64,000 nucleotides of DNA from Marsupella aquatica (taxonomy: Eukaryota > Plantae > Marchantiophyta), in contig OZ316894.1 of NCBI GenBank assembly GCA_973895155.1, positions 15,244,699 through 15,308,698 on the forward strand, read 5' to 3'. The notes beneath the pieces are model-generated. The model searched no databases, was not told the DNA's origin, and saw only the letters and a list, made by a program, of their open reading frames with translations. This document shows positions 1 through 34,415 of this stretch, one piece after another. Numbering within the stretch: the stretch's first letter is position 1; each line of letters starts with the position of its first letter. Made by a program: the position numbers and the translations under genes.

Positions 1-7
1 AATCTAC

Positions 8-4181: not shown

Positions 4182-4282
4182 ATCAGCAAAAGAAAGCCCT
4201 AATTACTCCATGCTCCCATCCATAGTCTGTTGTCTGCATCCAACGCACATATATTGTAAGTCATTCAAATTTACAATCATGC

Positions 4283-5177
4283 CCGGATTGTTCCTGACTA
4301 GAGAGATGCAGGTCGGTTGGATAGGTCTCGTGCTCCAGTCTCACTGATGCCAAAAACACTATCAACGGCATCCCCTAGAAAGTACTCTACTTCTCCTTGA
4401 CACGGTCTGACCTCAGCTATATGCCGAACATGACTAGTAGTGAGTTTAGGACATGCATCTTTATGGTGTCCGGTTTTATAACATAAGGCACACCATACAG
4501 AGCTATCTTCCAGTACTACTTTCTTCTTTGGCTTTACCTCTGCTATTATAGCCTTAAGCTGCTCGGTAAGAGCTACGATGTTATCTGGCATTTTAGCCTC
4601 TAGCTTGACTTTCAACTTCCCCCTCCTTCTGCCCTTCTTTTTCCTGGATTTTTCTTCTTCAAAACTAGAAGATGACTCACTCTTGCTACTTCCACTATCC
4701 GAGCTTGAGTTATCACTTCTTGACTTCTTAGAATGTTTCTTTTTCTTATCTTTTTTCTTATGTGGTGATCCTTCCTCCGATGAGGAACTCTCAGACTTGA
4801 GCTGTTTCTTCCGGCTTGTGATATCTGCATTAATGTACAATTGAATATCCCTAATTGCCTCGGCTAAAGTCTCTAGGTTCTCCTTCCTAATTGCAAAACT
4901 CATCTTCTGCGGTAAAGCATTCACCAACCATTGAAGTTGCATACCTTCAGACGCATTGGTCTTTGTACGTCTTACCAGCTTTTGGAAGCATTGCAAGAAC
5001 TTCTTGAAGGATTTGTTCTCCTTGAACCAAAGTCGTCCCAACTTCAGCACTGCTAGCTCTGAGGTTCCAATGGGTCGAAACTCCTTTACAAATAGTGATT
5101 TGAAGGTATGCCAGATGGCTTGATCTTCCACATCCAATGCTTTGTACCAGGGCCTAGCCTCACCCTTGAACAGGCCG
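4283..5177 (-). pseudogene. Ty3/gypsy gag fragment, same family as 19709-30903
   Basis: Protein nearly identical to that of ~24890-25793 (EFRPIGTSELAVLKLGRL, CALCYKTGHHKDAC zinc knuckle). Confidence 0.9.
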
Positions 5178-5187
5178 AGGTTTTTCC

Positions 5188-10180: not shown

Positions 10181-13100
10181 TGGCTCCCTAAACCCAAGAT
10201 ACCCCCCTGCACAAGCTGATTCCCACAAGTTTTGCTCTCGACGAGGCCGGTTTTGTGGCTTAGCGACATGGGACGCTGCTAACTCTACTAACATTTTACA
10301 CACATATACTGGACAGATCCTTCATCGGGTCATGAGATACGTAGTCGGCTTATTCTATGCCTTTCCTTGTTTTCCCTTTGTGGTCTTCCTTTAGGTATGT
10401 TTGGATTCCACCGCCGGAATGATCCCCAACTGGCTTGGGTAAGCCGCTGAGACCTCTCTCAGCTCGACACATCCAACTCTTACTACCTTGCTTACTCCCT
10501 TCTCTTGGTTGATGTGGGCAATCTTCAAACAAGTTAATGCGACACACAAATAGCAAAATGACTCCTTCTGACTGAGTTATACCATGCACTTGCCATACAA
10601 ACAGTACTTCTCATACACAAGATCTGCGAACTAAGCCGTGAGGCCAACTCTATTCATCTCTTAGGCATGAGGAAACATGAATATACACAAGGGTCACAAT
10701 ATAACTAACCGAGAGCTTCTTTTACTACTTGATCCCAGCCCTGCTGATGCACTAAAAACTTGCTAAGAAAGAAGGCCCTGAACTCCCCGCAGCCCAGGTA
10801 CTTATCATGGCAGTGGATCCGCCTAATCTACCTAATTGTAATCTACCTATGTACAGCGAGGCAGGAGCACAAGTGGTGCTTTTACCAGTGGATCCGCAAT
10901 CCCACTAATCTAAGTGTCAGGGCCGCCTCTTGGTCCTGATTCTAATTCTAAACTTGGAGATCTGAGCCCGCCCTGCCCTGCCCACTCACGCCTCCTCCCT
11001 CCACGTCCGCCCTCTTTAAAAGGGGCGGCCCTCCACCACCATCATGGTAGCGGTGGCTGGTCCTCAATGGATGCCCCCAACGCTTCCTCCGCAGCCATTG
11101 CTGTAGGTCCATCCTCTGACAGATTACCTGCCCCGGACCGAGTCAACTCTCCATTGGCCTGACTGGGCCCACCCTCGGCTTTGGTCTTAGCATCGGTCAC
11201 GGCCTCTTATACGGCCTCTAGTGGTGGATCCGGTACCCCGGCTTCATCATTGAGTGTCCTGGCCTCGGCTCTGCCATCCCCGCCTTCTAGGGCAGTTGGA
11301 TCCTCTGCCGTGACCTTGCCTGAGGTTGGTGTCGGGTTTACCTCCTTGGTCATGATGGCTTGAGAAGCTACATTACTCCCTGACCCATAAGGTTTCCGCT
11401 TATTCTTCTTCCCTATTTTGGCAGCTGGTCCTTTCCCCTTGCCACTTATCTCCGGCACGGGTGCAAGTGTTGTGGCTTGTCCTTCGGCCAGTACTACTCT
11501 TGGAAACTTGGTTGCCCCAATTGAACTTGATGAAGCCAAGCACTTAAATACTACGGTTTGTTTCTTTAGCCGCTCCATTTGGTTGTCGGCTCGCCGCTGT
11601 AACTTCTCCATCTTCCTCGTGCTTTCCTCCAACTCCTCCTGCACTTCGTCCAGGTCCTTGCGCGCCTCCTCTAGCTCCTTCTGGGCTTCCTCCAATTCCT
11701 TTTTTAAGGTAGCCCTCTCCTCCTGGGTTGCTCTTAGCTCCTTGTCGAGCTCCGCTACGACCTCAGACTCCATTTTATTCATCTTGGCATAAGTCTGATT
11801 GAGCTGGTCGTCTTTCTCACGCAGGTCGGCCTTGAAGCTGGCCGTCAAGGATGCAAGCTCCTGCTGCAGCACAATAATCCTTTGATAGGATTTCCCTAAC
11901 TCGGCCTCCTTCTGCTCAAGGGCTCCGCGGATATCCTCGAGTTCCCCCTTCAATGCCCTTTCCCTTCTCTGAGTCTCCGCCATGGCCCAATTGTTGGCTG
12001 CTATGTGGGCCTCCTCTGCGTCCCTTAGCTCCCGCTTCCACTTCTCTCTTTCCTTGACCGCAACGGCCAACTCCCCCTGGGTTCGAGTTAGTTTACCCTT
12101 GATAATCTGATTATTAGACTAAGTGGTATCCAATTGCCCCTGCATGATGTCTAGCTCATGCCGCTTAATCCGTAGCTCATCTTGGGCTTTCTTGGCCTCC
12201 TTCAGGTCTTCCACCTCGGCTTCCCTTGCCCTAAGTCAATGGATGACCTCGTCTTTCTTTCTTCTCTCCAAAGCCACTGCTTCTTCTAATCGGAGTTTTT
12301 CCAACATCTCCCTCTGGAAAAAAGGTCCCTGCTCCAACTCCTCCCCAAAGATGCTGAGCGCAAGTTCCCCACACATCTCCTCGTACTCCATGGCTCTGTC
12401 TTTAGCATAGGTGGAGTGAGTAGAAGTCATCTGCATCAACGACCGCGGCCTTTGTTCCCAAGCCGCCTTGCGGATTTCTTCTATCGTGGCTGGAGGGCTG
12501 GTTTGTTTTTTTGCAAGCTGCCTGATGTCCTCTGGCCATTCTCCCCCTTGTAAATCTTTCTCCCTAGCCAGGGCTGCCCTCTCTTCCTCCTTGAGTCGCT
12601 CCTGAAACTCTTGTGCCATCTGTTTTATGTCGTCAAAGCTTGGGGGAGCGACATCTGGCAGGGGGGACTCGGGGCTGTTCTGCTGGGTGGGGTCCCCTCG
12701 AACTACTCTTGGAAGCGTGGGGATGAAACGGCCATAGGTCCTTAATTCCTGGAACATGATGGTCCAACCCATAGCCGGAGTCATCATTGCCGTAGTCCTC
12801 CACCGCCTCCTCCACTGCTTGGACTACCGGTTCCCCTGATGCTCCCCTGGTCTTGTTGTGAACACGGCCTCCTGCCAATCATAGCTAGCAGGTCCTAGTT
12901 CCTCCTCTGGCTTCCAGGCTATCTTCTCCCTCTGTTTCCCCTAAACAGGAGCCTTAGGCTGCCTTCCCTCGGCTATAGGACTCGAGGCTCCTACATACAT
13001 ACAAACCCCCGGCTCGTGTTCCGGCCTCCTTCTTTCCTTGGCTCCGGTAAAGGGGTTTTCCTTCATGAGTCGGCTTAGGCCGACCTCTGAAGGAGTCTCC

Positions 13101-14840
13101 TATACCTGTGCTGTTGCTGTTGCCGTTCTCTTTTCCTTCTCTAGCAATTTCAACAGATTATGCATGACTGGTTGCTGCATCGGCAAGTCCTCCGTCCTCG
13201 GCCTAAACACCTGCTCGATTGTAGGACTGTCGGGCTGGTTTGGTTTCTCTATTGCCGGCCTCTATTCTGGAACCTCCTCTGGTGCCCTTGCTTGCAGTGG
13301 AAGTACCGGGGCAAAGATCTGACTTCGGGCATACCGGCATAACAGCGGCATGTGATAGCCAAGCCGGGACACGCTTCCCATGCCAATCGCCTGCTGTTCC
13401 TCCTTCAAGATCTTCTTCAATTGGGTGAGGAGGTACCCGTTGTAGTCCCGGCTTGGGTCTGGCCTTTCCGCTAGGTAGACCTATGCCTTGCCAATCTCTG
13501 GCCTCGGCAAGTTGCAGTGCATGGTTACCTGCAAGAAATCGATGATCTCTCCTATGTGCGGGTTGGTGCAGCTGTTCCAAAAGAAGCCATTCTTCGTTGA
13601 TGGCCCTGGGAACAATCGGAACTCTTTGTCTGGCAAGGTCTTCCGGGTATCTACTTTGGTCTTATTGCCCATCGGCAAGCCAAACACTTCGGTAATCACC
13701 GGGGGAGTGAGATAGAAATCCTTCCCATACACCCTTGTGGAATTGGTCTCAGGTTCCCATGATCCCATAAATTCTAATAAATCTGAATCCGGCACCTCCG
13801 GCTTCATCCATGGTAATTTCACAAAAGCTTCCAAGCCGGATCCGGCCATGAAGCCCTGGTACTTCCGAGTTCTGCATAGCCGTAAAGCATGCATCCTCTT
13901 CATGTGCAAAGTGTAATTGCACTTCCTTGGGGAGGGTTGCCGCCCAGCCTTTCTAGGTGTCATCTCTTGTCGGAACAACATTGATGGGGTCGACCTCCTC
14001 TTCTTCGGCTTCGTCTTGCCTCCTGCTGCCTTGCTCGACTGGCTTCCTTGGTGCCGCCGACCTTGTTCTCTTCGCAGGGGTGGTCACTTTGTTGGAGTTC
14101 CCTTTCCTCTTCATAGCTGCTGCCGTGGATGTTTCTCCTAGCACGGTTGCCTTCGTCCACCCCTCCGTGCTACCCTTCAACTCCGTGTATGTCGTTGCAA
14201 CGGTTGATGGCTTCTTGGATGCTGACTATTCTGTTCTCACAAAACAGAAGATCGTCAAGTTCGTCGCCAATAGGTGTCCATAGGAATTCAGTTATGATGA
14301 GTTCTCCTCCTAAGAAGGCAGACTTCTGCAGCTCCCACAGTCAAGCGAGCTCCTGCCATTCTCAAGCGGCTCTCTCCAATTCTTCATCCTTGTAGGTCCC
14401 AATATACTCAGTTGCCCGTTCTAACAGGCATCCCCAAAAATCAGCAGCCTGATTGACGTTGCTCATACCCTTCCTTGAATTGATAGTCGGTATTTGCTCC
14501 CTCCCCAAGTGCTTGCCTAAGCAACTGACAGAAGTTGCTTCACGTAGTCGTCTGCTTAGTTCGTGCTTGCAAATGAGCCACCATTCCTTGTGATCGATCC
14601 TCACCCCCCTGCCTGGTCTTCCTTCCCGTTAGTTACCCATAGCCGCCGGTACTTAGCGCGCCCTAACCCTAATCGTGTTCCCTCTTCCGACGCCCTTACT
14701 TCCGGCCTCGACTTGGGTTCCATAGTCACCCTTAATTGTTTATATTTTCCTTGTTTTTGTTACTATACTAATGTGTTTCTAGGGTACACTCTTGATTTTA
14801 CCATTTAAACTGGCCTAGTGATTCCTGGCTAGGCATCACA
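10181..14840 (-). mobile_element. Diverged near-complete copy of the 4.7-kb gypsy LTR
   Basis: Collinear with 26248-30903; same TGTGATGCC start on the minus strand; lacks the last 14 bp. Confidence 0.8.
11207..14466 (-). pseudogene. LTR-embedded accessory ORF, disrupted copy 2
   Basis: Fragments MSNVNQAA, MAGSGLEAFVKLPW...VFGLP, AMEYEEMCGELAL and a long coiled coil, homologous to 27148-30527. Confidence 0.8.
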
Positions 14841-17889: not shown

Positions 17890-18168
17890 TTTCACTTCGA
17901 GTTGGAAGGGAAATTGGCTGTGGTTTAAGCTCAGACTTTGCCAGAGCATTGGACACAGCGAGAATGTATCAGTGGCAAAGTTAGAGCTGCAACCGACATC
18001 GTTTGGTATGCACTTTAGCATGCACGATCTGCTACGTGTCCAGTTTCGGGATTCTGAGCTTGGGGTGAAATTTCACTTCGAGTTGGAAGGGCAATCGGCT
18101 GCGGTTTGAGCTCAAATTTTGGCAGAGTGTTGCAAACAGCGAGAGTGTATCACTGGCAAAGCTTTGTG

Positions 18169-18939
18169 ATGGCAACGGAGGAGATTGCCCATCTCAAGGC
18201 TTTGCTTGAGAAAATCTTAGTTGTGGCTGAAAACTCTGCAATTGAGATTACCACACTCAACAAGGAGGTGACGGAGCTAAAGAATGAGAATGTCAAGCAA
18301 AAGAGGTTGATTAGTGATCTTCGATCTCAAACTCAGGAGAATGGTAAGCAACTCTCATTGCTTGCATCGTGTTTTGGAGACATGGAGAAGAGTATGTGCC
18401 CAGAGAAATCAGTGATACATGAGGCTGTAGGGGAGATTGAGGAGAAGCTCAAAACCTTTGCACAGGCTGCAAAACAATCACATATGGAATTTGTCCAAGC
18501 CAAGGAGGAGGAGCGGAGAGCACTAGAGGAAGAGCACAAGAACCAGCATGCAAGAGTCAGCAACTGCAAAATATCAGGCCTTGTTGAGGAGGAGAAGGAA
18601 GACACCAAGAAGGTAGCAATTTCATTCTTCCAATCTCAGATGAAAGTGCATGACCCTATCATTTTGCAAGCATGTAGGATTGGGAAAAAGAAGGGGGACC
18701 TTCCGCGTCCAATCTTGGTGAAGTTTGCAGCTGAATCCGAGAAAGCTAGAGTGATGGCTAACAAGAGCATGCTTAAAGGGCTAAGGATTTGGTTGGATGA
18801 TGATCTGACTCCCACACAAGTCCAAGCAAGGAAAATTGAGCTTGAGAAGGTGAGGGTAGCCAAAGACCAAGGATTGGTAGCCTACTTGCGCAATGGACAA
18901 GCTGTTGTTACCAATAAGAAGAGAGTTGTTTCTAAATGA
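18169..18939 (+). CDS. LINE ORF1 (coiled coil plus RRM/CTD-type nucleic-acid chaperone)
   Basis: N-terminal heptads, RIGKK..PRPILVKF and IWLDDDLT motifs; directly upstream of the APE domain. Confidence 0.8.
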   Translation: MATEEIAHLKALLEKILVVAENSAIEITTLNKEVTELKNENVKQKRLISDLRSQTQENGKQLSLLASCFGDMEKSMCPEKSVIHEAVGEIEEKLKTFAQAAKQSHMEFVQAKEEERRALEEEHKNQHARVSNCKISGLVEEEKEDTKKVAISFFQSQMKVHDPIILQACRIGKKKGDLPRPILVKFAAESEKARVMANKSMLKGLRIWLDDDLTPTQVQARKIELEKVRVAKDQGLVAYLRNGQAVVTNKKRVVSK

Positions 18940-19495
18940 TGGATTGGGACCTTGAGAGTCATGGCATGGAATGTTTCAGGACTTTCCATAGAAATAGCAA
19001 TTGGAGGGGAACCTTTGTTTGAGAATTTTGACATCTTGCTTTTCACGGAGACTTGGGAATATGAGGGAAATGCTCTACCTAGCATTAAAGGCTTTACTTG
19101 CATACAATCCATCTTCAATGAGAAGAAGACCACACGGGGAAGAGGGTTTGGAGGCATTGCTGTCTACACCAAGAATCAACTTCAACACATCACCTCTATT
19201 GAGCATGAAGATCCCAGCAAGCAGTTCATGGTGGTGAGACTTCATACCAGAGGTACTCCATCATTTCTGATTGTCACCTACTTTGCTCCCCTTAATATGA
19301 ATGTCTATAAGATGGGAATTGTTGATGCACATTATCCATTTCATAGGTTAATCCAAGTCATTCATGATATATCACCACTAGGGGAGACATGGATAGTGGG
19401 GGACTTTAATGCCAGGGTATCTAATGAACAATTTACTGAAAGTGAGGACTTAGGAACTTTACCTTGGTCATCATGTAGTGAAGAGATACCTTGGG
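18940..19495 (+). pseudogene. LINE ORF2 APE endonuclease, truncated
   Basis: LRVMAWNV, DILLFTETW, GGIAVY, VTYFAP, IVGDFNAR. Confidence 0.9.
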
Positions 19496-19679
19496 TGACT
19501 TGGATTAACCTATGAAATGGATAATGTGCATCAGCAATTCCCATCTTATAGACATTCATATTAAGGGGAGCAAAGTAGGTGACAATCAGAAATGATGGAG
19601 TACCTCTGGTATGAAGTCTCACCACCATGAACTGCTTGCTGGGATCTTCATGTTCAATAGAGGTGATGTGTTGAAGTTG
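19177..19679. repeat. 184-bp inverted repeat with 135-bp spacer
   Basis: 19496-19679 is the reverse complement of 19177-19360 with about 2 mismatches. Confidence 0.95.
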
Positions 19680-19708
19680 CATTACCATTACCATTACCAT
19701 TACCATTA

Positions 19709-20009
19709 CCGTAGTCGTCTGCCTACTTTGTGCTCACAAATGAGCCACCATCTCCTGCAAGCGCTCCTTACCCCTCTCCTCTTCCGGTTTTTCCTCCCGT
19801 TGATCCTTCCTAGCCGCCGACGCTTAACGCGCCCTAACCCTAATCGAGTTTTCACCCCCAGCGTCCTTACCCCCGGCCTCGGCCCGGGTTCCATAGTCGC
19901 CCCTAATTGTTTATATTTTCCTTGTTTTGTCCCTATACTAAGGTGTTTCTAGGGTGCACTCCTGCTTTACCCACTTCACTGGCCGAGTGATTCCTGGCTA
20001 GGCATCACA
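19709..20009 (-). repeat. 3' LTR remnant (first ~300 bp)
   Basis: Begins TGTGATGCC after PPT-like AAGTGGGGAGCTA (20010-20022); about 4 differences from 30603-30903; abuts the (CATTAC)5 tail. Confidence 0.9.
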
Positions 20010-23000
20010 TAGCTCCCCACTTAATTGTGAAGCGTCCTTGCGAACAACTTCATCTTCGTCCATATAGTATTTCTTGAGGCGGTCATAATGGATGCGAACT
20101 GGATATACTTCTCCCGTAATGTTGGCCAATTGTACGGATCCATTGGAGAACTTCATGGTTACTCTAAAGGGTCCTAACCAGCGAGTGTAAAGCTTCCCTG
20201 GAAACCTATTATACCTACTGTCTTAAAGTAACACAAGATCACCGGTGTGAATACTAACTACTTTCAACTTTTTATCATACTGCTGCTTCATGATATTCTG
20301 TCTATATTCTACTCTCTCGGCTGAAATCATTCTCGCCTCCTCTAAAGCTTCTAACCTATATTCTCGCTCCCTTAGGCTCTCCTCCGCTGAGGCTCTCTCC
20401 TCAATTGTAACTTGAAATGTCGGTATCTCAAGTTGCATGGGTACTAGGGCTTCTTGTCCAAAGGTTAAGAAGAAGGGTGTATGACCGGTAGTGGATTTAT
20501 AGGCTAGATTGTAAGCAAAAACAGCAGCAAACAATTTACCATCCCAATCGAGTTTGTTCTGAGCTACTGTCTTGTTCAATATCTTTCCTATAATTCCGTT
20601 TGCTCGTTCTGTCAACCCATTTGCCTTTGGATGGTAGGGAGTAGTAGGCCTATGTCTAACTAAATACTGCTCATTTAAACGACTAATTATATCATTCAGA
20701 AAATGGGTTCCTCTATCACTAACTAATTCTAGGGGTGCTCCATACCTGGTGAAGATCTGCTCATACATGAATCTAGCCGTAGTAATTGCATCATCCTTCG
20801 TGGTCGGTCTGGCCTCTACCCATTTAGTTGCATAATCCGTAGCCAGGATTATGTACTTGTTCCGTCGAGGGTGGGTCAGTGGTTTCAGAGGTCCGATGTA
20901 ATCAATACCCCACTTCTCGAATGGTGCCAGAGGTAGAATAGGGTGTAGTGGATGTCTGGTGGACGCCCTTGGTCCTCCCGCTCGCTGACAAGGATCGCAT
21001 TGTTTGATAAATTGATAGACATCCTTGTGTAAGGTGGGCCACCAGTAACCGGCATTTAATATCTTTTTAGACGTGGTTACCGGGGCAAAATGTCCTCCGG
21101 CCTCCTCTCCATGCATGGCCCGTAGGACTCGTTTTACCTCTCCCTTTTCCAAAACACCTTTGTATCGTGCCGTTGATTCCATGCTTGTGCAGTATGCCTT
21201 TAATGCACTGATACTGTCTGACCTTTCGCACAAAGACTGCGGCTTGCTCTCGGCTTAATCCTGGCTGTAATCTGGAAGTGCTGAGAAAATGTAAAATCTC
21301 AGGGTACCATGTATCAGCTATTTCCACAATGAATAGCTCCTCGTCGGGGAATCGATCATCGATGCAATCCGTGGCAGGTTCACCTATGATCCTTGAAAAG
21401 AAGTCGACATTGGCGTGTAACTTTCCCGGCTTGATCCTCAGCTCATAGTCAAACTCCTGTAATAGCAAAATCCATCTTGCTACTCTGCCTGTAAGGTTCG
21501 GCTTATTGACTAGGTACTTCAAACTTTCATGATCGGTATGAAAGATTACCTTGTACCCTAGTAAATAATGCCTAAACTTTTTACAGGAATAAATGACTCC
21601 TAATGCTTCTCTCTCTGTGGTGGAGTAGTTCCGTTCGGCATCGGCAAGCTGACGGCTTGCGAAGTATATGGGATGGTCCCTTCCTTTCTCATCTAACTGA
21701 CTTAGTACTGAGCCGATACAGAAGCCCGAGACATCTACAAAAACATGAAAATCTTTGTTCCAGTCCGGTGCTATCATGACTAGGGCCTCTACCAACATCT
21801 GCTTCAATTCTACCACCGCTGTGACTCGTTCGGGTGTGGGTTCGAAGTCTGCTCCTGCCTTGAGCATGTTGGTTAATGGTAAAGCTAGTTTGGCAAAATC
21901 CTTGGTGAACCGGCGATAGTAACCAATGCATCCCAAGAAGGATCTTACATCCTTTATGTTCTTAGGTTGCACGATATCTAGCCATACTGCTAGCTTACCT
22001 TTGTCAATCTCAATGCCCTTCCTTGATACCTTGTGACCTAGTAGCACCCCCTCGGTTACTGCAAAGAAACATTTATCTAGGTGTAACTTGAGACCTACCT
22101 CTCTACATCTCATGAAGGTTTTCCTGAGGTATTTAGCATGTTTCGATGCCTTCCCAAATACTGCAAAGTCATCAATGAAGATTTCCATAAACTTTCTCAA
22201 GTAATCATGAAAAATGTTTACCATCAATCGTTGGAACATAGCTGGTGCGTTGCAGAGTCCAAACGGCATACGATTGAAGACATAGATCCCCCATTCCGTG
22301 ATGAAGGCCGTCTTGATTTGGTCTTCCTGCCGAATCCTGATTTGGTTATAACCAGAGTACCCATCCATGAATGAATATAGTTCATGACTGGCTACCATGT
22401 CTAGTACCATATCAGTAAATGGTAAAGGAAAATGGTCTTTTAATGTTGCTTCATTCAGCTTCCTGTAATCCTGACAAACCCGGATCTTGGGTTTACCATC
22501 GGGTCCAGCTTTCTTGGGAACTATCACAATTGGAGACACCTAGTCTGAATGCAAGACTGGAGTGATGAATCCAGCTTCCACTAGTTTGTCAATTTCTGTT
22601 TTGACCAGCAGGGAATACTTCGGGTGCATCCTTCGAATTGGTTGTCTGAATGATTTGGCTCCTAACATGAGATCAATTCGATGTTCCCCCAATGTTGGAT
22701 CTACTCCCTTTAGATCTTGGTGACTCCATGCAAACACATCCTGAAATTCAATTAGTAAGTCACTGATCTCCTTCTCCAGCTCAGGTGCTAGGTCTCTCCC
22801 TAAGTTTAGTTCCCTCCCTTCTCCTAAGTCAAGCTTCCGGTATTGCCGTGCTTGGATCATATTAATCTGCTTCTTCAAATTTGGGTCCAGCTCGGCTTCC
22901 AGTCTTTCCAGTCTCATACCTCCATAAATTGGAATCTTGGCTGTACTAGCCGAGTCGGTCCCTTCCTTGGTGTCCATAGATTGTCCCCTTGCCGGTCTAT

Positions 23001-24119
23001 TCGGTTTTAAATTGGTAGTAGGTTTTCCTTCCTGCCTCGGCTCTGGATTCTGTCTGTGCATCTCATCCACCTCTTCCTCCTGAGGGTCAGGCCGCTGTGC
23101 TCTCCCGACTTCTAATAGGGCCTCAATTTGTTCTGCCCTTGTAATCGGCTTGTATGCTGATCCCTTGGTATTTAATTCCTTGCCGATGATCGATGGCGTT
23201 GTGGACCCTGTCGGCTCTGCCACAACGCCTGCAGAAAATCCACTGTCCCTGCTACTGCTCCCCACTTAGCCGTTTCATCCAATTGGTCTACATCCTTTAC
23301 TTCCTCCGGAATTCCAGCTAAAAAGGTGGATTCTATTGTAAAGCAGTCCTCGACCTCTTCGTCTTCTTCTTCCAAGTCACCTTTCATTGGTTCTTGCCAT
23401 AATCCGCTGGGGGGTACCTCTGGTCCAAAGACACTTTCTTCGGTTAGGTCAGTGAGGCATTCTAGCCAACGTACTTCATCGGCTGACTCCAGTCCACTGT
23501 CGTACCCATCGGCTTCCCTTATGCTTTTCCTACGGTCATCCTTAGTGTCCCAGGATACCGTGATAGAGGGGGTCCCGAAAGTGAACTGCTTTTTACCCCA
23601 ATCTTCTATTACCTCGGCTAGGTACAACCATGGCCTGCCAATTAATAGCCAAAACGACGTAGGGTTTACCGGCTTCATTACTACATAGTTAATGCTAAAG
23701 AAGATACCTCCTATCTCTGTCTTGATGCCGGTTAACACTCCCGTGGGAATGACCTGATACCCATTGGCCATGTTCAACACTCTTCCAGTCATCTCTGGTT
23801 TTAGACCCCACCCATTTGCTGTTGAATCAATCATAATACATACCCCTGATCCTCCATCGATGGGTACCTGTAGTAATAATTCTCCTTGAATCATTAATGG
23901 TAATGTCGGGGCTCCTTGATCTTCTTCTATCATTAGTACGTTGGATCTGGTCGCTACCTTGGGTAATCTTGGCTTGCCGAGAATAGCCTTCCTTAATTGC
24001 TTCCGGAAGTACGGGCTATTTTTCAATAGTTGACCAACTGTTGCCGAGACTCTAGACTCTAGTACATCTTTAGCCAGGTCATAGGGAACAATCGGCTTCT
24101 CCTCTGGTGGTGTCTCCAT
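19998..24119 (-). pseudogene. Gypsy pol (protease, RT, RNase H, integrase), disrupted
   Basis: IDGGSG protease; RVCQDYRKLN, DGYSGYNQI, FIDD; NYSTTEREAL; H-H-C-C zinc finger, WGIDYIGP, SDRGTHF, WLGPF. The reading frame ends at a TAG just inside the 3' LTR. Confidence 0.92.
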
Positions 24120-24131
24120 CTTGGATTCGGC

Positions 24132-26164
24132 CTATTTTGCCACGCTAGTCTCTACAGCTGTTGGATCCTCCGAAGCAAACAATGCTTTTGCTCGTTTCAC
24201 ATCCTTGGCTATGGCTTCGGTATTCTCCAGGGTTTCTAATTCTCTAAGTTGTTCCTTAACACTAGCCATAACAGAGGGGTAGAACAACTTAGGATGATCT
24301 CGATTGAAGTCGCTATCTTGTGAAGGATTGGGTTCACTGGTGGGCTCATGGCTTACCTGTATTGCTGGAGCCCTCCCTTCTTCTTCCGTTGATGTTGACG
24401 AAGAGTTGATCTTTTCCTCCGTAACCTTTCCTTTATTTTTGGCCAGCCCATCCCACCTTTCCTTCCTTCTGGTAGATCGAGTAGAGACCCGGTAGCAATC
24501 ATGATCTAAATCCTCTTCTGAGAAGGTTGATAGGGCTTCGGCCTCATCATCAGATGGTACGAACTCTGCCTCGGCATCCTCTTGCCATCCTAGTTCAATG
24601 TGATTGATTTGAACTCCTCCGGGGGTAGTACCTGGCGGTAAGACCTTGACCGGCAAAAGTTTATGATTTGCGGCCAGGCCTGCCAACCAAGTAGGACATT
24701 GGCCTAGCATATGACCTTCCTGTCGGCATCCCATACATAGCTGAGCTGGTTGTCCATCACCCTGTTTGCGTGCATTCGGGCACTCTCTAGCAAAATGGCC
24801 AGGTTGACCACAATTATAGCATGCCGCAAATCTTTGCACATTCAGCCTAGGAGGTACTGACGGGTTCTGAATAATCCGAGGATACATCTCTCCTGGATTG
24901 TTCCTTAACCCTGACCATAGGGATGCAGGTCTGTTGGATAGGTCTTGTGCTCCAGTCTCACTGATGCCGAAAACACTATCAGCGGCATCCCCTAAAAAGT
25001 ACTCTACTTCTCCCTGACACGGTCTGATCTCGGCCACATGCCGAACATGATTAGTATTAAGTTAGGACACGCATCTTTATGGTGTCCGGTTTTATAACAT
25101 AAGGCACACCATATAGAGCTATCCTCCTGTACTGCCTTCTTCTTTGGCTTTACCTCTGCAATTATAGCCTTAAGTTGCTCGGTAAGGGCTACGATGTTAT
25201 CTGGTGGCTTAGCCTCCAGCTTGACTTTCGTCTTCCCTCTCCTTCTGCCCTTCCGTTTCCTAGTTTTTTCTTCTTCAGAACTAGAAGATGACTCACTCTT
25301 GCTACTTCCACTATCCGAGCTTGAGTTATCACTTCTTGACTTCTTAGAATGTTTCTTCTTCTTATCTTTTTTCTTATGGGGTGATCCCTCCTCCGATGAG
25401 GAACTCTCAGACTTAAGCTGTTTCTTCCGGCTTGTGATATCTGCATTAATATATAATTGAATATCCTTAATTGCATCGGCTAAAGTCTCCGGGTTCTCCT
25501 TCCTAATTGCAAAACTCATCTTCTGTGGCAAAGCATTCACCAACCATTGAAGTTGCATACCTTCAGATGCATTGGTCTTTGTACGTCTTACCAGTTTCTG
25601 AAAGCGTTGCAAGAACTTCCTGAAGGATTTGTTCTCCTTGAACCGAAGTCGTCCCAACTTCAGCACTGCTAGTTCTGAAGTTCCAATGGGTCGAAACTCC
25701 TTAACAAAGAGTGTTTTGAAGATATCCCAGATGGCTTGATCTTCCACATCTAATGCTCTGTACCAAGGCCTAGCCTCACCCTTGAACAGGCCGGGAAGAA
25801 TCTGCATCTTGATGGCCGATTCTCCATTTGCTGCAGCGGTTCCCTCGAAATCATCCAACCATTCGTCCGGATCCTCATCTCCTCTCCCATGAAATGCCTT
25901 GTAATGTATGCGCGACCATTGGCTCAGTCTGGTCCCTGGCCTCTCGTCTGGCCGTGCCTCTGGTTCCCCCATGTCGGTTGGAGACTCACTTCTCCTTACC
26001 GACTCTTCTTCTGGTATGTCTTCTTCGACGCCACTTCCAGCTTCGGAGCTACCAGCTCTTTCTGCCCCTCTCAGTCGCTGTGTATCATGCCACCCGGCGA
26101 GCTGCTGCAGTCGAGCTCTCTCCCGTTGAATCACTCTTTCTTCCCTCGGCGTAAGGTCAGTCAT
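24132..26164 (-). pseudogene. Gypsy gag with three CCHC knuckles, frameshift near 25045
   Basis: FHGRGDEDPDEWL, CALCYKTGHHKDAC, CYNCGQPGHFAREC, CMGCRQEGHMLGQC. Confidence 0.9.
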
Positions 26165-26212
26165 TACCTACGCTTCCTTTCTAACTTCATATCTCACGGC
26201 TTAAGAAATGCC

Positions 26213-26229
26213 CCCTCCATCTAGTGCCA
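26213..26229 (-). promoter_or_regulatory. Putative primer-binding site
   Basis: TGGCACTAGATGGAGGG, 4 nt after ...GCACCACA; resembles the TGGCGCTAGAAGGAGGG-type PBS recalled from Tat elements. Confidence 0.7.
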
Positions 26230-26233
26230 AAAA

Positions 26234-29200
26234 TGTGGTGCGTCCCATGGCTCCCTAAACCCAAAAAACCCCCCAGCTCAAGCCGATTCCCGCAGGGTTC
26301 GCGCTTGGCGAGGCCGTTTCCGCGGCTTAGCGGCATGGGACGCTGCTAACCTTCTCCTACTACTATTAACATTTTACACACATATACTGGACAGATCCTT
26401 CATCGGGTCATGAGATACGTAGCCGGCCTAATCTAGGCCTTCCCTCGTCTTCCCCTCCGTTTTGTTAGGTATGTTTGGATTCCGCCGCCGGAATGATCCC
26501 CAATAGGCTTGGTTAAGCCGCTAAGACCTCTCTCAGCTCGACACATCCAACTCTCACTCCCCTGCTTACTTTCCTTCCTTCTGGTTGATGTGGGCACTCT
26601 TCACACAAGTTAATGTGACACACAAATAGCAAAATGACTCATTCTGACTGAGTCATACCATGCACTTGCCATACAAACAGTACATCTCATACACAAGTTC
26701 TGCGAACTAAGCCGTGAGGCCAACTCTATTCAGCTCTTAGGCATGAGGAAACATGAATATACACAAGGGTCACTGTATGACTAACCGAGAGCTTCTCTTA
26801 CTACTTGATCCCAGCCCGGCTGGTGCAAACTAAAAACTTGCTAAAGAAGAGGCCCTGAGCTTCCCGCTGCCCAGGTATTTATCCTGGTAGTGGATCCGCC
26901 TAATTCTTTGCAGCGTAAGCCTAGTCTACCTAACAGTAATCTACCTGCCCGAAACTACCTATGTACAGCAAGGCAGGAGCACAAGTGTTGCTCCTACCAG
27001 TGGAACCACAATCCCACTAAGCTAAGTGTCAGGGCCGCTCCTGGTCCTGATCCTAATCCTAAACTTGGAGATCAGCGCCCGCCCTGCCCACTCACGCCTC
27101 CTCCCTCCACGTCCGCTCTTCCTAAAAGGAACGGCACCCTTGCACCGTCACGACACCGGTGGTGGATCCTCGATGGACGCCCCCAACGCTTCCTCCTCAG
27201 CCACTGCCGTAGGTTCGTTTTCTGACAGATTACCTGCCCTTGACTGAGTCAACTCTCCATCGGCCTGACTGGGTCCACCATTGGCGTCGGCATCGGCTCG
27301 GGAATCATTCACGGCTATGGCCTCAGCCTCGGCTACGGTTTCCCCGACTTGCTCAAGAGGCGGATCTGGGATACCGGCCTCATGATTGAGTAGTTTGGCT
27401 TGGGCCGCACCTTCCCCACCCTTGGTGATAGCGGGATCTATTGCCGTGTTCATGCCGGAGGTTGGTGCTGGGTCTACCTCCTTGGTCACCACGGCCAGTG
27501 GAGTCGTATTACTCCTTGACCTTGAAGGTTTCCGCTTCTTCTTCTTTTCTGGTTCGGCAGCTGGTCCCTTCCCCTTCCCACTTACTTCCGGCACTGGTGC
27601 AGGTGGCGCGGCTTTTTCTTCGGCCAGTACCACTCCTGGTAACTTGGTTTCCCCAATTGGAGTTGGGCCTGATGAAGACAAGCACTTAAATACTGCGGCT
27701 TGTTTCTTCAGCCGCTCTGTTTGGTTGTCGGCCCGCCGCTGGAGGTTCTCCATCTTCCTCGTGATTTCCTCCAACTCCTCCTGGGTCTCATCCAGGTCCT
27801 TGCGCGCCTCCTCTAGTTCCTTCTGGGCTTCCTCCCGTTCTTTCTTCAAGGTAGCCCTCTCCTCCCGGGTTGCTCTTAGCTCCTTGTCGAGCTCTGCAAT
27901 GATGACAGACTCCATCTGATTCATCTTGGCGTAAGTCTGATCGAGCATCTCGTCCTTCTCCCTTAGGTCGGCCTTGAAGCTGGCCGTCAGGGACGCAAGC
28001 TCCTGCTGCAGCGCCATAATCCCTTGATAGGATTTTCCTAACTCGGCCTCCTTTTGCTCAAGGGCTCCGCGGATTTTCTTGAGCTCCCCCTTCAACGCCC
28101 ATTCCTTTCTTTGGGTCTCCGCCATGGCCCGGCTGTTGGCTGTTATGTGGGCCTCCTCTGCATTCCTTAGCTCTCGCTTCCACTTCTCCCTCTCTTTGAT
28201 CGTATCGGCCAACTCTCCCTGCGTCTGAGTCAGTTTATCCTTGATATTCTGATTATCAGCCTGCGCGGTGTCCAACTGCCCCTGCATGATGTTCAGCTCA
28301 TGCCGTTTAATCCGTAGTTCATCTTGTGCTTTCTTGGCCGCCCTTAGATCTTCAATCTCGGCTTCCATCCTCCTAAGCCGCCGAATGACCTCATCCTTCT
28401 TGCTTCTCTCTAAAGCCACCGCTTCTTCTAACTGGTGCTTCTCCAACTGCTCCCTATGGAAAAAGGGTCCTACCTCCAACTCCTCTCCAAAGATGCTGAG
28501 CGCAAGTTCCCCACACATCTCACCATACTCCATGGCTCTATTCTTAGCGTAGGTGGAGTAAGTAGAAGTGATCGGCATCGCCCATCACGGCCTCTGCTCC
28601 CAAGCCGTCTTGCAGATCTCTTCAATCGTGGCTAGAGGTTTGCTTCCTTTTTCGGCTAGCCGCCTGATGTCCTCCGGCCAATCTCCTCCTGGCAAATCCT
28701 TTTCCCTGGCCAGGGCTGCCTTCTCTTCCTGCCTGATTCGCTCCTGAAATTTCTGCGCCGTCTGTTTTATGCCGTCAAAGCTCGGGGGAGCAACATCTGG
28801 TGGGGGAGACTCAGGGCTACTCTGCTGGTTGGGGTCCCCTCGTACTACCCTTGGAAGTGTGGGGACAAACCGGCCACAGGTCCTTACTCCTGGAACGTGA
28901 TGGGCCGACCCATAGCCGGAGTTATCATGGCTGCAGTCTCCACTGCCTCCTCTACTTCTTGGACTTCCGGCTTCTCCCTCTCCTCTTCGTCCGTAGGAGC
29001 TTCAGGCAATTCAGCCTCAGATTCAGAGCTTGAGACTCGCACATACATTCGAACACCTGGCTTGGATTCCGGCCTGATTCTCTCCTTGTTTCTAGCAAAG
29101 GGGTTTTCTTTTGTGAGCCGGTGTAGGCCTACCTCTGGAGTAGTGTCCTGCATTGTTGCCGTTGCCGTTGTTGTTGCCGATGCCGATCTCTTTTCTTTCT

Positions 29201-30903
29201 CCAGTAGTTTCAGCAGACTCTGTATGCCTGGTTGCTGCATCGGCAAGTCCTCCTTCCTTGGCCTAAACACCTGCTCGATCGTAGGGCTACCAGGTGGTTG
29301 AGGCTTCTCTGCTACCGGCCTCGGTGCTGGAGCTTCCTCGGGTGCCCTTACCTACAGGGGAAGTACTCGGGCAAAAGTCTGACCTCTGGCATACCGGCAC
29401 AACAGCGGCATGTGATAGCCAAGCCGCGACACGCTCCCCATGCCGATTACCTGCTGCTCCTCCTTCAAGATTTTCTTCAATTGGTTGAGGAGGTACCCGT
29501 TGTAGTCCCGGCTTGGGTCTGGCCTCTCTGCCAGATAGACTTGTGCCTTGCCGATCTCTGCCCTCGGCAAGTTACAATGCATGGTCACCCGCAAGAAGTC
29601 GATCATCTCTCCTATGTGCGGGTTGGTGCAGGTGTTCCGGAAGAAGCCATTCTTCGTTGATGGCCCGGGGAACGACCGGAACTCCTTGTCAGGCAAGGTC
29701 TTCCTTGTATCAACTTTGGTCTTATTGCCTATCGGCAAGCCAAACACTTCGGCAATCACTTTGGGAGTAAGATAGAAATCATTCCCATATATCCTCGTGC
29801 AATTGGTCTCGGGTTCCCATGACCCCACGAATTCTAATAGGTCTGAATCCGGTACTTCCGGCTTCAGCCATGGTAATCTTACAAAGGCCTCTAAGCCGGA
29901 TCCGGCCATGAAGCCTTGGTACTTCTTGGTCTACATGGCCGTAAAGCATGCATCCTCCTCCCGTGCAAAATGTAGTTGCACCTCCACCGGTAGGGTTGCC
30001 GCCCAGCCCTTCCAGGTGTCATCCCTGGTTGGAATGGCCTTGATGGGATCAACCTCCTCCTCTTCGGCTTCTCCCTGCCTCCTCATCTATTGCTCGGCTG
30101 GCTTCTTTGGTGCCGCCGACCTTGTTCTTTTTGCCGGGGTGGCTTCATCGTTGACGGCTCCCTTCCTCTTCATCTCTGCTGCCGTGGAGGTTTCTCCTAG
30201 CACCGTTGCCTGGGTCCACCTTTCCGTGCTACCCTTCAATTCCCAGTGTATGTCATTGCAGTTCTTGATGGCCTCTCGGATACCGACGACGCTGTCTTTG
30301 CAAAACAGAAGATCGTCGAGCTGATTGGAAGTAGGAGTCCACAAGAACTCGTCCTTGATGAGTTTGCCTCCTAAGAAAGCCGTCTTCTGCAGCTCCCACA
30401 ATCGAGCGAGCTCCTGCCGTTCTCGAGCTGCCCTTTCTGATTCCTCGTCCTCGTAAGTCTTGATGTACTCAGTTGCCCGTTCGAACAGGTATCCCCAGAA
30501 ATGTGCTGCTTGATTGACGTTGCTCATACCCTCCTTAGGTCGATCGTCGGTATCTACTCTCTCCCCGAGTGCTTGCCTAAGCAGCTGTCAGTAGTTGGCC
30601 TCCCGTAGTCGTCTGCCTAGTTTGTGCTCACAAATGAGCCACCATCTCCTGCAAGCGCTCCTTACCCCTCTCCTCTTCCGGTTTTTCCTCCCGTTGATCC
30701 TTCCTAGCCGCCGACGCTTAACGCGCCCTAACCCTAATCGAGTTTTCACCCCCAGCGTCCTTACCCCCGGCCTCGGCCCGGGTTCCATAGTCGCCCCTAA
30801 TTGTTTATATTTTCCTTGTTTTGTCCCTATACTAAGGTGTTTGAAGGGTGCACTCTTGCTTTACCCACTTCACTGGCCGAGTGATTCCTGGCTAGGCATC
30901 ACA
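26234..30903 (-). repeat. Putative 4.67-kb 5' LTR
   Basis: TGTGATGC...GCACCACA termini (8-bp inverted repeat, 1 mismatch) followed by the PBS; second copy at 10181-14840. Confidence 0.72.
27148..30527 (-). pseudogene. ~1100-codon accessory ORF inside the LTR (Athila-ORF/plant-transposon-protein-like domain plus long coiled coil)
   Basis: ORFs 30087-30527, 29352-29909 and 28884-29270 share one frame separated by point stops; frameshift(s) then lead to 27148-28578. Confidence 0.8.
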
Positions 30904-31988
30904 CATCCTGAGGCAGATGGATTGGTAGAGAGAGTTGTACAAATTGTGAAGAGAGGATTGCATAAGTATGGCTTGCAGGTTGGTCATTTGGAAGATTGGG
31001 ATCTCCATCTACCTTGGTTAGCTATGGGCTATCGTTTCACTCAACAAGCATTACTTGCATCATTCTCACCTTATTTCTTGCTCGATGGTAGAGAGCCAAA
31101 TTTGCCAGCGGCTATTCGTTGTGATGTGGCAATTGTTATGGATTTGGATGATCCTGATGTTTAGGTCAAGGTGTATTCAGAGAGGGCACAAGTTTTTGAG
31201 AGAGTCATGCCCATGGCCTTTGACAACCTTGTCGTTGCTCAACATCGTGATACTTTGATGTATGCCACTATTTGTGGAGGAGATATCATGTGAGGATTCG
31301 ACAGTTTGATCCTCGTGATTTTGTTTATTTGCAGCAAATAGCACCAATAACACTTGATGTGACCGCACATCGGACAATCTTACGTGTGCGTAAAGTGTTG
31401 TCTTCTGGTGTCCTAATGTTGGAAGGACAGGATGGTATGGTTTGGAAGGATCATGTGTGCAATTGTGCACCATGTCATCTTTCAAACATTGATGGTACTG
31501 TAGATCCAAGCTTGGCTCAAGTTTATGCCGGCTTGAAGTGTATGTTGTGTGGATCTGCTCAAGGAGCAGCCACTATGTTGATTTGTGATAAGTGTTCTAG
31601 AGGATGGCACATGTCGTGTTTGACACCACCGTTGGAGGTGATTCCTAGTGGATCATGGTTGTGTCCTCAATGTTGGTGAAGCCAACTAGTTACCATTTAT
31701 GTTCTCATGGAAAGTATAGATTGTAGGAAGGTGATCGATGGGGCACCATTGCACCCGGCCTCCTAATCTTCACACTTGAAAATCTGTATACCAACCTTGT
31801 AGAACTTGTGGCTAGTTAGAGTTAGGGGACCTCACTGCTAGCTAGGGGGCGATTGTGGGTTTTGGACATGTGTAGATAGGAGTTCCACTTGTACTCCATT
31901 CTTTTATGTTTGTGATGTTGATTGTGATTATGCTTAGATGTGTGTGACAAGCGATGTATGTTGTGTAGCGATGTGTATGCGCACGACA
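30904..31988 (+). mobile_element. 3' end of PHD-finger gypsy element (integrase C-terminus, PHD, PPT, 135-bp LTR 31854-31988)
   Basis: HPEADGLVER integrase motif; C4HC3 finger at 31539-31673; AGGGGGCGAT then TGTGGG...ACGACA; homologous to 62516-63600. Confidence 0.88.
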
Positions 31989-32000: not shown

Positions 32001-34415
32001 TCCTAAACTATAATACAAGGTTGCGCCCTTTTATACCGTGGTCATCATTCAAATATAGAGTGTCCAAAAAAAGATTCCAGCAAAAGAAGAAGGAATAAAT
32101 AAAAAATATTAAAGTTTAGTGTGAATGAAAGGGGCACGAACACTCTGCAAAAAGGAAACACTCAAATGAGACAACCAAAATGGGAAATGATTAGTAGATA
32201 AGCCCATGGAAGCACAAGGATCAATGTAGATCCCTCTACTTTCCATCAATGCACAAGTGAGAACAAAAAGTTGTTTTCAATGCAAGTCAAAAATGTATTA
32301 TTTATCTTCCATAGTTTTTGTGATAATTATCAAAAACTACAATACACTATGGCACCAATTTATACCATGGTCGTCTTTCAAAATTGCCAGGCCGTTTTGG
32401 ATAAAAAAACCAAACCGGAAAAAATTGAACTGATAAGACAGAAAAACTCAAGTGGAGACTCAAGCCGTCACTTGGATTGCAGTGCCGCAAAGTCAGCACC
32501 AAGCCGCTGCAAGTCGTGATCCCCCCAGCGACCAGCCCTGCCCAGCTCGCGGCTGCCAATGCTGGCTGGCTGGCTGGCTCTGCCCTCTGCCTCCCATGCC
32601 ACCTTTTGCCTCCCCACCTTGCGGCCCCTCCTCCTGACTCCCTCCTGCCCCTCCCACCTCCCCACCCCACTCTCCCTCCTCGCGCTCCCCCACTCAACCC
32701 TAAAACCCTGTCTCGATGACCCACCCAATCCCCGCCCTCTCCCTCGCCTGGACTTGGTCTTGCCCTTGCCTGGACTCGGTCTTGTGTCTTGGACTCGGAC
32801 TCATGCCTAGACCGAGGCCCGGGTTCCTACTGGGTTTTTCTTGTCCTCGCACATGGAGACTTGACAAAATGCAACAATCCTCTGCCCTAACTCATCTCTA
32901 ATATTATTGGAGTTTTTTTAGTTAACAGTCAACATATTTTACTTGACAACACCTTTTACTAACGATGTCCCATTACTTACCCACATATTTCAATTGGTGT
33001 AACCACATCTTTGACATAATGACATCTTTTACACATGGCATATTTTTACTTAACGACATCTCTGACGCCATGACATATGTTTACTTAACAACATCTTTTA
33101 TGGAACAGTATTTTTGGTGCAAGGCATGGGTATTGAGCTATTAACTTCTATAATACAAGGTTGTGCCTTTTTTGCCATGCTCATCAGTCAAATTTGCAGG
33201 GCACAAAAAATAAGAAATCTGGTAGAACGAAGGAATATAAATAAATAAGTTTTAGTCTAGTATGAATGAAAAAGAGTCACACCAATGTCCAAGTAGGAGG
33301 AATCAAATGGGATAAGTAGACTAAAAAGGGACGTCACTAACACAATGCACAAGGATCAACGAGAAAATATTGTACATACTCAATAAGGTGTAGATACTCC
33401 ATAGAGTGAGATAGTGCATAGTTTAGTGTAATATTGGTAGGAGTTAAATTTCAGATACTATTTCAGTCAATAAGGGATTACATACACTAATCAAATAAAA
33501 TAATAATTCTCCCAATATTTAGGATGATAATTTGTTACATTCCTTTTTTTGTGCCACTTTCACTGCCAAAAAATTAAAAAACTATAAGGTCTAAAGACAT
33601 AGTAAAGATCATGGCACTGACATTGATGGCAAGGTGTCGGGCGAGGGGCATACTTTTACTTCATTACATCTTTTTACTTCACAATATCTTTCACATAACG
33701 AACCATTTGGCACCACATCATCTTTTTAGTCAACGACATCTTTTTATTTATGACATCTCACATAACAACATCTTTGGAAAAACGACTTCTTTTTTGTTAA
33801 CGACAATGTTTTACTTGACAACCACTATTTACTTGATGACAACTTTTTACTTGACGACATGTTTGGCAAAATGACTTCTTTTTTCTTAACGACATCTTTT
33901 ACTTGACAACATCTTTCACATAACTACATCTTTGGCAAAACAACTTCATTGTTCTTAACTACATCGTTTTACTTCACGACATCTTTTACATAACGACATC
34001 TTGGGCGACATAACATCTTTTGTGCACCGCACGGGTATTGAGCTATTTTGTACTTAACAACATTGTTATACTTAACAAAACCTTTGGCATAACGCGTTAC
34101 GACATCATTGGCAACACGACCTCTATTTCTTCCACAACCTCTTGGCCGGCACAACATCTTTTGTTCTCAACGACTTCTTGGCCGACACAACATCTTTTGT
34201 TCTCACCAACATCTTGGGCGACACGACATCTTGGGCGACACGACATCTTGGGCAACACGACATCTTGGGCAACACGACATCTTCTTCTCAACGACGTCTT
34301 GGCCGACACATCATCTTTCTTCTCAACAACCTCTTGGCCGACACTACATCTTTTGTTCTCAACAACATCTTGGCCGTCACGACATCTTTTGTGCAACACA
34401 CGGGTATTGAGCTAG
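32001..34415 (+). mobile_element. Composite non-autonomous Helitron
   Basis: A|TC start at 32001; 5' motif CTATAATACAAGGTTG repeated at 33148; GTGC-N3-(G/A)CACGGGTATTGAGCTA(G/T)-type ends at 33141, 34046 and 34415 (last is CTAG|T). Confidence 0.75.
33650..34390. repeat. Degenerate minisatellite (ACGACATCTT-based, ~15-20 bp units)
   Basis: Many ACGACATCTT/ACAACATCTT copies, best preserved at 34200-34290; related array at ~32925-33110. Confidence 0.85.

Follow-up and report, generated by a model that had tools for sequence, protein, structure and literature searches.

An accessory gene for a predicted VANC-like DNA-binding protein very probably lies inside the long terminal repeat of a liverwort Gypsy retrotransposon

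The window analysed here is a 64,000-nucleotide stretch of contig OZ316894.1 from the liverwort Marsupella aquatica. It contains, on the minus strand, a Ty3/Gypsy retrotransposon whose 4.67-kb terminal unit encloses an accessory open reading frame (ORF). We reached the following conclusions. First, the unit is very likely a true long terminal repeat (LTR), and we have little doubt that the accessory gene lies inside it. In addition, the ORF was under purifying selection, and its globular domain probably has, according to a structural model, the DNA-binding fold of the VANC proteins and the plant mobile domain (PMD). Finally, we lean towards the view that the protein would be a sequence-specific DNA-binding factor, borne by the LTR, that counters silencing by acting against methylation. 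Extra ORFs are common in plant retrotransposons, and their function is an open question (PMC7264820 and PMC6317226, both in part).

On the minus strand, the unit opens with TGTGATGC at 30903 and closes with GCACCACA at 26234, and seven of the eight end bases are complementary as a terminal inverted repeat (TIR). Beyond 26234 follow four T, a primer-binding site (PBS; TGGCACTAGATGGAGGG, from 26229) and the gag ATG at 26164, which is 70 bp past the LTR-terminal CA. The PBS fits what we take to be the 3' end of plant tRNA-Asn; no tRNA gene was found within the 64-kb window, and base 26225 of the PBS differs in nearly all read contigs covering it. A scan of 19700-31000 for CA-TGG sites gave three, of which the one at 26237 alone is tRNA-like and none is near 30500. 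The hallmarks of Ty3/Gypsy elements are present: gag followed by reverse transcriptase (RT), then RNase H (RH) and lastly integrase (INT), a PBS, a polypurine tract (PPT) and an LTR of the TG...CA type. Pfam gave no match to a chromodomain or an additional RNase H (aRH) in the pol frames at E ≤ 0.1; the protease (PR) region has no Pfam match, yet it matches the pol of relatives.

At the other end of gag-pol, the PPT AAGTGGGGAGCTA occupies 20022-20010, and the LTR start repeats immediately at 20009. The integrase frame crosses the PPT and terminates at a stop (20000-19998) inside the 3' LTR, which bears out the claim of an earlier note on this DNA that pol reads through the PPT and leaves no internal 3' region. 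The coordinates that the note gave for the unit, the PBS, gag and the repeated start all hold, and it was right that the 3' LTR is truncated here. The remnant at 20009-19709 matches 30903-30603 at 297 of 301 bases (4 differences) and is broken at 19709 by the (CATTAC)n tail of a long interspersed nuclear element (LINE); the remainder of the 3' LTR was not found in 14841-19708. The adjoining region (16040-19708) is made up of two LINE pieces that abut back to back, each with a (CATTAC)n tail at its outer end. It contains a minus-strand RT frame (18072-16492), a plus-strand coiled-coil and endonuclease frame (18058-19515) and a 500-bp fold-back at 19177-19679.

The TG of the LTR start has three different left neighbours in the window, namely the PPT, the integrase of a foreign Gypsy family and unrelated DNA at 14841. 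The junction with the foreign integrase at 30904 is clean, as verified against a second copy of that integrase (62516-63603); the left part of the interrupted integrase was not found in the 64-kb window. The DNA at 14841 adjoins a second copy of the unit (copy 2, 14840-10181), which spans almost the same unit as copy 1, as the earlier note had described. Copy 2 opens at the same TG, lacks the last 14 bp of the LTR and is fused to an integrase fragment (10178-9996). We regard the 4.67-kb unit as very likely a true LTR because of the TIR, the PBS, the start adjacent to the PPT, the clean host junction and the second, independent flank.

The placement of the gene was further examined with read contigs. 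Median depth in contigs from four of the ten listed runs was higher over the ORF than over gag-pol in 4/4 runs, with ratios of 3.5, 3.4, 4.0 and 2.7, which are depth ratios and not copy numbers. Among the best 12 of 60 contig joints, at least two run from within the unit to exactly 26234, and this fits nested insertions ending there. Given the three flanks, the single PBS-like site, the depth, these joints and the two relatives L001 and L003 described below, we place the accessory gene inside the LTR with high confidence, in agreement with the earlier note.

A metagenome scan with an RT alignment confirmed 526 stretches, of which 80 loci were kept; scanning genomes yielded a further 39 loci. 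Loci L081-L119 are Gypsy RT within prokaryote genome bins and are likely eukaryotic contamination. The best named RT relatives came from Calypogeia fissa (61-68%) and Riccia sorocarpa (53-57%), and the four closest RT loci (57-58%) all carry a sense ORF behind pol. In L001, a PPT and TGTGGGAGC stand directly after pol, and the other contig end shows GCTCCCACA before the PBS. This perfect 9-bp TIR indicates that the ORF of L001 (from 6662) is inside its LTR. L003 has the same PPT and TG start as L001, followed by an intact 606-codon ORF. L004, a collapsed circle with a 123-bp terminal overlap, has the layout of Athila: pol, a PPT-like tract without TG, the ORF, a GTTCGC box, a PPT, TGTGATG, a 1-kb LTR and a PBS that is presumably of the Asp type. 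The ORF of L004 is thus internal, between pol and the 1-kb LTR. L002 was counted for neither layout, as its post-pol tract may or may not open an LTR.

In a tree of 23 chosen rows of 70, the window element grouped with Calypogeia, L001 and L003 (99/96), and L004 with L002 formed the sister of this clade (88/86); the layout is known for four of the rows only, and no REXdb-labelled references are among them. The window RT fell among liverwort sequences in this tree and outside its four rows from seed plants. The features of the element in the window are collected in Table 1.

Table 1. Positions of the element's parts, its further copies and its insertion site in the window
Feature	Position	Strand	Remarks
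gag-PR-RT-RH-INT	19998..26164	minus	scattered stops and frameshifts; integrase frame ends within the 3' LTR
GTTCGC box and PPT	20010..20045	minus	inside the coding end of integrase
3' LTR remnant, 301 bp	19709..20009	minus	98.7% identical to the 5' LTR start
5' LTR, 4,670 bp (very likely)	26234..30903	minus	TGTGATGC...GCACCACA; termini, recurrence after the PPT
PBS, tRNA-Asn-like	26213..26229	minus	TGGCACTAGATGGAGGG; tRNA identity presumed
Candidate ORF promoter TATAAA	30804..30809	minus	kept in both copies; ~280 bp upstream of the ORF ATG
Purine tract directly after the ORF stop	27095..27130	minus	may be left over from an earlier, downstream PPT
Insertion site: integrase from a different Gypsy family	30904..31988	plus	cleanly resumes at the LTR's first base
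Accessory ORF, very probably inside the LTR, ~1,126 codons	27148..30527	minus	4 internal stops and one frameshift in copy 1
Conserved N-terminal region	30050..30527	minus	unnamed homologues P0128, P0131, P0133; no family
Globular domain, predicted VANC21 (DUF1985/PMD-like) fold	29358..29975	minus	model, Atlas neighbours, dN/dS 0.12
Long coiled-coil-like region	27700..28450	minus	by sequence; sub-threshold Pfam matches to coiled-coil families only
Candidate nuclear localization signal (NLS) KKKKRK	27529..27546	minus	copy 2: weaker KKNK
Second, diverged LTR copy	10181..14840	minus	81-82% identical; decayed ORF 14466-11042
gag fragment, same family	4293..5177	minus	92% identical to 24910-25793

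The sense ORF (30527-27148) that the earlier note had pointed out was compared between the two copies. Its ATG and terminal TGA are common to both. The frameshift of copy 1 lies between about 28887 and 28940, besides its four internal stops. In copy 2 the frame is interrupted by 11 stops and by several indels, and the two copies have not one of these 15 stops in common. The pairwise ratio of nonsynonymous to synonymous substitution rates (dN/dS) was 0.20 (confidence interval 0.15-0.26; 530 codons) and 0.29 (0.22-0.37; 554 codons), with 0.12 in the globular domain and 0.16 in the N-terminal region. As controls, shifted sense frames gave 0.95-1.57 and the 3' non-coding part gave 0.74-1.00. The single antisense frame with coinciding third positions gave 0.27-0.33, which a mirror frame would be expected to do. 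In the short non-coding stretch at the 5' end the ratio was 0.48-0.76, with wide intervals. The dN/dS values and the unshared stops indicate that the ORF was selected while two subfamilies diverged and that both copies are dead now. The ORF was under purifying selection.

We searched for the identity of the protein by sequence and by structure. Pfam returned no family for the N-terminal half of the ORF at E ≤ 0.1 and none for the domain at E ≤ 10, and the profiles PF09331 (DUF1985), PF10536 (PMD), PF03078 (Athila ORF-1) and DUF287 did not match the ORF or the domain. Since Pfam gives no family for the domain, the label 'Athila-ORF-like' that the earlier note had attached to it is unsupported, and the domain is better described as DUF1985/PMD/VANC-like. 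Its neighbours in the ESM Atlas were plant hypothetical proteins, DUF1985 (16 of 30 named matches, 0.90) and PMD (0.89, 20% share); the DUF1985 and PMD neighbours count as a single line of evidence, and the PMD neighbour as a lead only. A domain model built from 22 sequences reached a predicted local distance difference test score (pLDDT) of 85.7. In a structure search of 48,161 chains, the sole match at Z ≥ 5 was DNA-bound VANC21 (9lnk_A), with Z 8.1, and the next match had Z 2.4. The alignment covered 194 of 206 residues at a root-mean-square deviation of 4.1, and a re-alignment gave Z 8.2. Foldseek also ranked VANC21 first, with a template modelling score (TM) of 0.49 and E 0.54, followed by a match of TM 0.16. 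A first, weaker model (pLDDT 55) had the same top match at Z 4.7 and no Foldseek match in the viral or PDB libraries. These results suggest that the domain probably has a VANC/PMD-type DNA-binding fold.

A HMMER search with the domain found 19 relatives, and two of the ten looked up were Calypogeia proteins. Together with the RT relatives, they point to a liverwort as the likely host. The domain had no match in word-index searches of proteins of 517-1645 aa or of 1379-3935 aa, and a metagenome scan with the domain alone confirmed 0 of 304 stretches. A first domain profile matched in 4 of the 119 loci, with the domain at E < 0.01 only in L004 and L002. When disjoint profiles of the window domain and the four-locus domain were aligned, hhalign gave E 7e-6 and probability 84 (reversed control, 0.1), and both profiles linked to a third group (probability 99.6 and 97).

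The element is enriched in a short CG-containing word. CGGC/GCCG occurs 144 times against 82 expected, GCCGA 59 against 23 and AAGCCG 28 against 7.7, and the GCCG context holds 17% of the element's CGs, compared with 4-6% in other window regions. Among 500 synonymous shuffles, the GCCG count was reached by 1 in part A of the ORF, 0 in part B, 1 in copy 2 and 8 in RT-RH. The word varies among the families: L001 and L003 are rich in TCCGG(A) (TCCGG 100 against 34 and 44 against 15 expected in pol; 0/500 shuffles), L004 is enriched in AGCGCT and L002 in AAACCG. The most extreme carrier of the ORF is L001, in which 1-7517 has an observed/expected (o/e) CpG of 0.98 and 56 TCCGGA sites in 7.5 kb. 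Small tandem arrays are present in L004 and L003. An enriched CG word at p < 0.001 was found in 5/5 ORF carriers, compared with 12/69 other loci (of at least 3.5 kb) and 3/7 other window blocks; the Fisher p of 0.0004 for carriers versus others is inflated by relatedness and by the post hoc choice of words. CGs kept in both copies amounted to 44/62 inside the word, 26/58 at other CCG sites and 38/92 in the rest. Retention inside the word thus exceeded that elsewhere (44/62 vs 64/150, p 0.0003) in a test that is not corrected for codon constraint.

The twelve other loci with a strongly enriched CG word are of the Gypsy type (L006, L011, L018, L024, L028, L031, L040, L055, L065, L069, L087 and L106; in L018, ACTCGA occurs 35 times against 4.9 expected), and some of them may run similar protein-word systems. 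Elsewhere in the window, 33654-34414 holds arrays of 17-18-bp units built on ACGACATC, which may be a different element's motif array. A 116-bp tandem array at 6578-7842 has a CG-rich core in each unit and sits in a block flanked by the two arms of a 73-bp inverted repeat (5188-5260 / 9010-9081).

We lean towards the following mechanism. The TATA near the LTR 5' end would drive a subgenomic ORF RNA, which either LTR or a solo LTR would make. The protein would be nuclear, would multimerise through its coiled coil and would bind the word of its family (GCCG core) across the element. Once bound, it would reduce methylation or other marks of silencing and so shield the element from the host, and CGs that lie in the word would survive. 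Several points weigh against this interpretation. The gag and integrase frames are not enriched in GCCG (152 and 287 of 500 shuffles reached the count), and the word threshold is also passed by the 12/69 other loci and 3/7 window blocks given above. The words were chosen after looking, and the five carriers are related, with one word shared by L001 and L003. The window LTR contains no VANDAL-type tandem motif arrays and has a CpG o/e of just 0.57-0.67; scans for 7- and 8-mers in the window element alone gave nothing significant. At the sequence level the domain has no match to VANC21 or DUF1985 (Pfam; a PDB sequence search gave chance matches only). The fold match is middling, with the Foldseek E given above and 7% identity, and models that lack a clear match typically have a best Z of 7-8, close to the 8.1 obtained here. 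Function does not follow from a shared fold, and MAIN/MAIL1 belong to the same fold family as VANC21 (PMC13547354, in part).

Two other roles for a gene inside the LTR have to be weighed. The protein may bind element DNA, but as a transactivator or Polycomb blocker and not against DNA methylation; we find this rather unlikely. Foamy-virus Tas and the PMD-C proteins MAIN/MAIL serve as models. In its favour, H3K27me3 has reportedly been linked to transposons in a Marchantia study. The fold is common to PMD-C proteins that counter Polycomb silencing via DNA motifs (10.1101/2024.09.27.615353, in part), and the Atlas gives PMD at 0.89. On the other hand, all enriched words in the five carriers contain CG and CGs in the word decay less, which points to methylation. 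This alternative departs from the interpretation we favour only in the mark that is countered.

We consider it quite unlikely that the protein acts at the stage of the RNA or the particle (in export, packaging, entry into the nucleus or cell-to-cell movement) and that the word enrichment is a mutation bias. The long coiled coil would suit such a role, related sense 3' ORFs have been discussed as env-like or movement factors (PMC7264820), and an enriched CG word is found in the 12/69 control loci too. Against this, the one solved structure that matches the fold is of a protein bound to DNA, the ORF has a basic NLS-like motif, and the word is element-specific within the window and changes between families. 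Of the functions named in the earlier note (anti-silencing, movement or packaging), the evidence favours anti-silencing.

The methylation-directed DNA-binding factor that we favour may be extended, tentatively, to a bryophyte Gypsy clade with a VANC-like, sequence-specific system, in which each family would have a CG word and its reader, one branch would have moved the gene into the LTR by a switch of its plus-strand priming site, and each solo LTR would still be a full anti-silencing gene along with its targets.

The window holds neither an intact two-LTR element nor a solo LTR with a target-site duplication within its 64 kb, which counts against the placement of the gene. The unit could be read in other ways. 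The true LTR might be the last 0.88 kb (about 27100-26234), with the ORF 3' internal as in L004 and the window showing tandem or rearranged elements. The purine tract after the ORF stop fits this, and in copy 2 it shares a 13-mer with the LTR-proximal PPT of L004 (a single occurrence in the window and another in 709 kb of loci). Depth over the final 0.8 kb of the LTR also exceeds that over the ORF in X2, X3 and X5 (~2.5x in X3), a further point against our placement, and the two joints at 26234 are compatible with either. We nevertheless find this highly unlikely. Both long copies open at the same TG next to unrelated left flanks, one of them a clean cut in an integrase, and the TIR pairs 30903 with 26234. 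The pol end in the window carries the full LTR-proximal signal of L004 (GTTCGC box, GGGGAGCTA, TGTGATG), the ORF is ~3-4x deeper than gag-pol, and the TIR of L001 shows the same layout. An Ogre-like 5' ORF between a PBS near 30500 and gag, with an LTR of a few hundred bp, which the earlier note had named as the arrangement that would speak against its reading, is scarcely credible: just 301 bp of 3' LTR remain in the window, but the break at 19709 is a LINE tail, none of the three CA-TGG sites lies near 30500 and only 26237 is tRNA-like, the joints stop exactly at 26234, and the ORF is deeper than gag-pol.

With the gene placed inside the LTR, its origin may be read from the relatives. The accessory gene would have begun as a 3' internal ORF, as in L004. 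Plus-strand priming would then have moved to an upstream PPT at the pol end, and the whole 3' internal region would have become U3 (the unique 3' part of the LTR). We propose this upstream shift of the priming site because the sister lineage L004 keeps the ORF between pol and a 1-kb LTR, and it is the simplest way for the gene to have entered; a pre-existing LTR into which the gene was inserted could also account for its position. The older layout retained by the sister lineage thus suggests how an LTR gene arose.

These results have several implications. A full gene within an LTR is a layout absent from two surveys, as far as their available parts go (PMC6317226, PMC7264820). The family pairs a domain predicted to bind DNA in the manner of VANC with a candidate target word, different in each family, which would offer a testable answer on extra ORFs. 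Solo-LTR formation is usually a host removal route and would here leave the accessory gene intact, and annotation pipelines that take LTRs as non-coding would miss such genes. If the binding is real, nature would provide in these families a set of proteins, each paired with its word, that could serve to target demethylation. If the clade-wide reading is true, the VANC/PMD arms race extends to retrotransposons and early-diverging land plants.

The remainder of the window contains a host gene with an NPH3 domain on the plus strand (39372-42289, E 6.5e-71), a CACTA-type transposase region (877-3216; Transposase_21, DUF4216) and a Copia element (44810-54024; gag, zinc knuckle, RVT_2) in which the segments 47710-49906 and 50426-52611 are duplicates of each other at 77%.

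We compared the element with known systems. A literature search, with most subscription papers outside its scope, found no gene in a plant retrotransposon LTR and no VANC-like factor in an LTR element. Neumann et al. class retrotransposon extra ORFs as 5' or 3' internal only (PMC6317226, in part), a review treats them as internal (PMC7264820), and the available parts of 10.1101/2021.05.30.446350, PMC12885004, PMC2533021 and PMC12859917 make no mention of ORFs inside LTRs. A VANC-like role for the ORFs of LTR elements has been called open (PMC12844716, in part). Ogre (LTR 1.9-6.5 kb; PMC6431247) and Retrosat2/RIRE3 (LTR ~3 kb, ORF0; PMC3485330) resemble the window element in the great length of the LTR and in having, on the map, an additional ORF upstream of gag. 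They differ in that their extra ORFs are described as internal or upstream of gag-pol and that the available parts of these sources do not speak of coding LTRs. An aRH domain is present in Ogre, and the window element differs from Tat/Ogre/Retand in having no aRH match; a liverwort group without aRH, Tat Z2, has been described (PMC13468544, in part).

The sense 3' ORFs of Athila (PF03078, env-like) resemble the window ORF, which is also sense and behind pol in the RNA, and the window pol has, like that of Athila, no chromodomain or aRH match. An Asn-type PBS occurs in 12% of Athila (PMC6317226, in part). The window ORF differs in lying behind the PPT, and hence is duplicated, and in the lack of a 3' internal region and of a PF03078 match. 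The element is a non-chromovirus Gypsy that resembles Athila and may or may not belong to it; it is not Tat/Ogre. Retroviral genes in the LTR include mouse mammary tumour virus sag, human immunodeficiency virus nef and foamy-virus tas/bet. They are similarly in or overlapping U3, but they are much smaller genes with no sequence relationship to the window ORF; the plant LTR described here is coding over 3.4 of its 4.7 kb.

PMD (PF10536; Ogre PMD-A, host MAIN/MAIL1/MAIL2) belongs to the same structural family as DUF1985 and is among the Atlas neighbours, and 57% of Ogre elements carry it in their extra ORFs (PMC6317226, in part); the window protein differs in having no PF10536 match. The VANC anti-silencing proteins of the Mutator-like VANDAL elements of Arabidopsis contain DUF1985; they bind motifs that are specific to the family and bring about demethylation (PMC5735166, in part), and VANC and MAIN/PMD are structural homologues (PMC13547354; 10.1101/2024.09.27.615353; both in part). 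Unlike VANC, the window gene is carried by a Gypsy retrotransposon, inside the LTR, and not by a Mutator-like DNA transposon, and its protein has no Pfam match to DUF1985 or DUF287. Its words are 4-6 bases with CG and occur also in coding DNA, whereas those of VANC are in non-coding tandem repeats, and the host is a bryophyte, whereas VANC has been called dicot-specific (PMC13547354, in part). The likeness lies in the predicted fold, which matches VANC21 (PDB 9LNK, 9LNJ) at Z 8.1-8.2, and in the short family-specific words enriched in the element, as in VANC/VANDAL. It lies also in a transposon-encoded accessory protein with a coiled coil, which in VANC21 is predicted and said to multimerise (PMC13547354, in part). 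The window protein is not a member of the VANC family, but it likely works like one.

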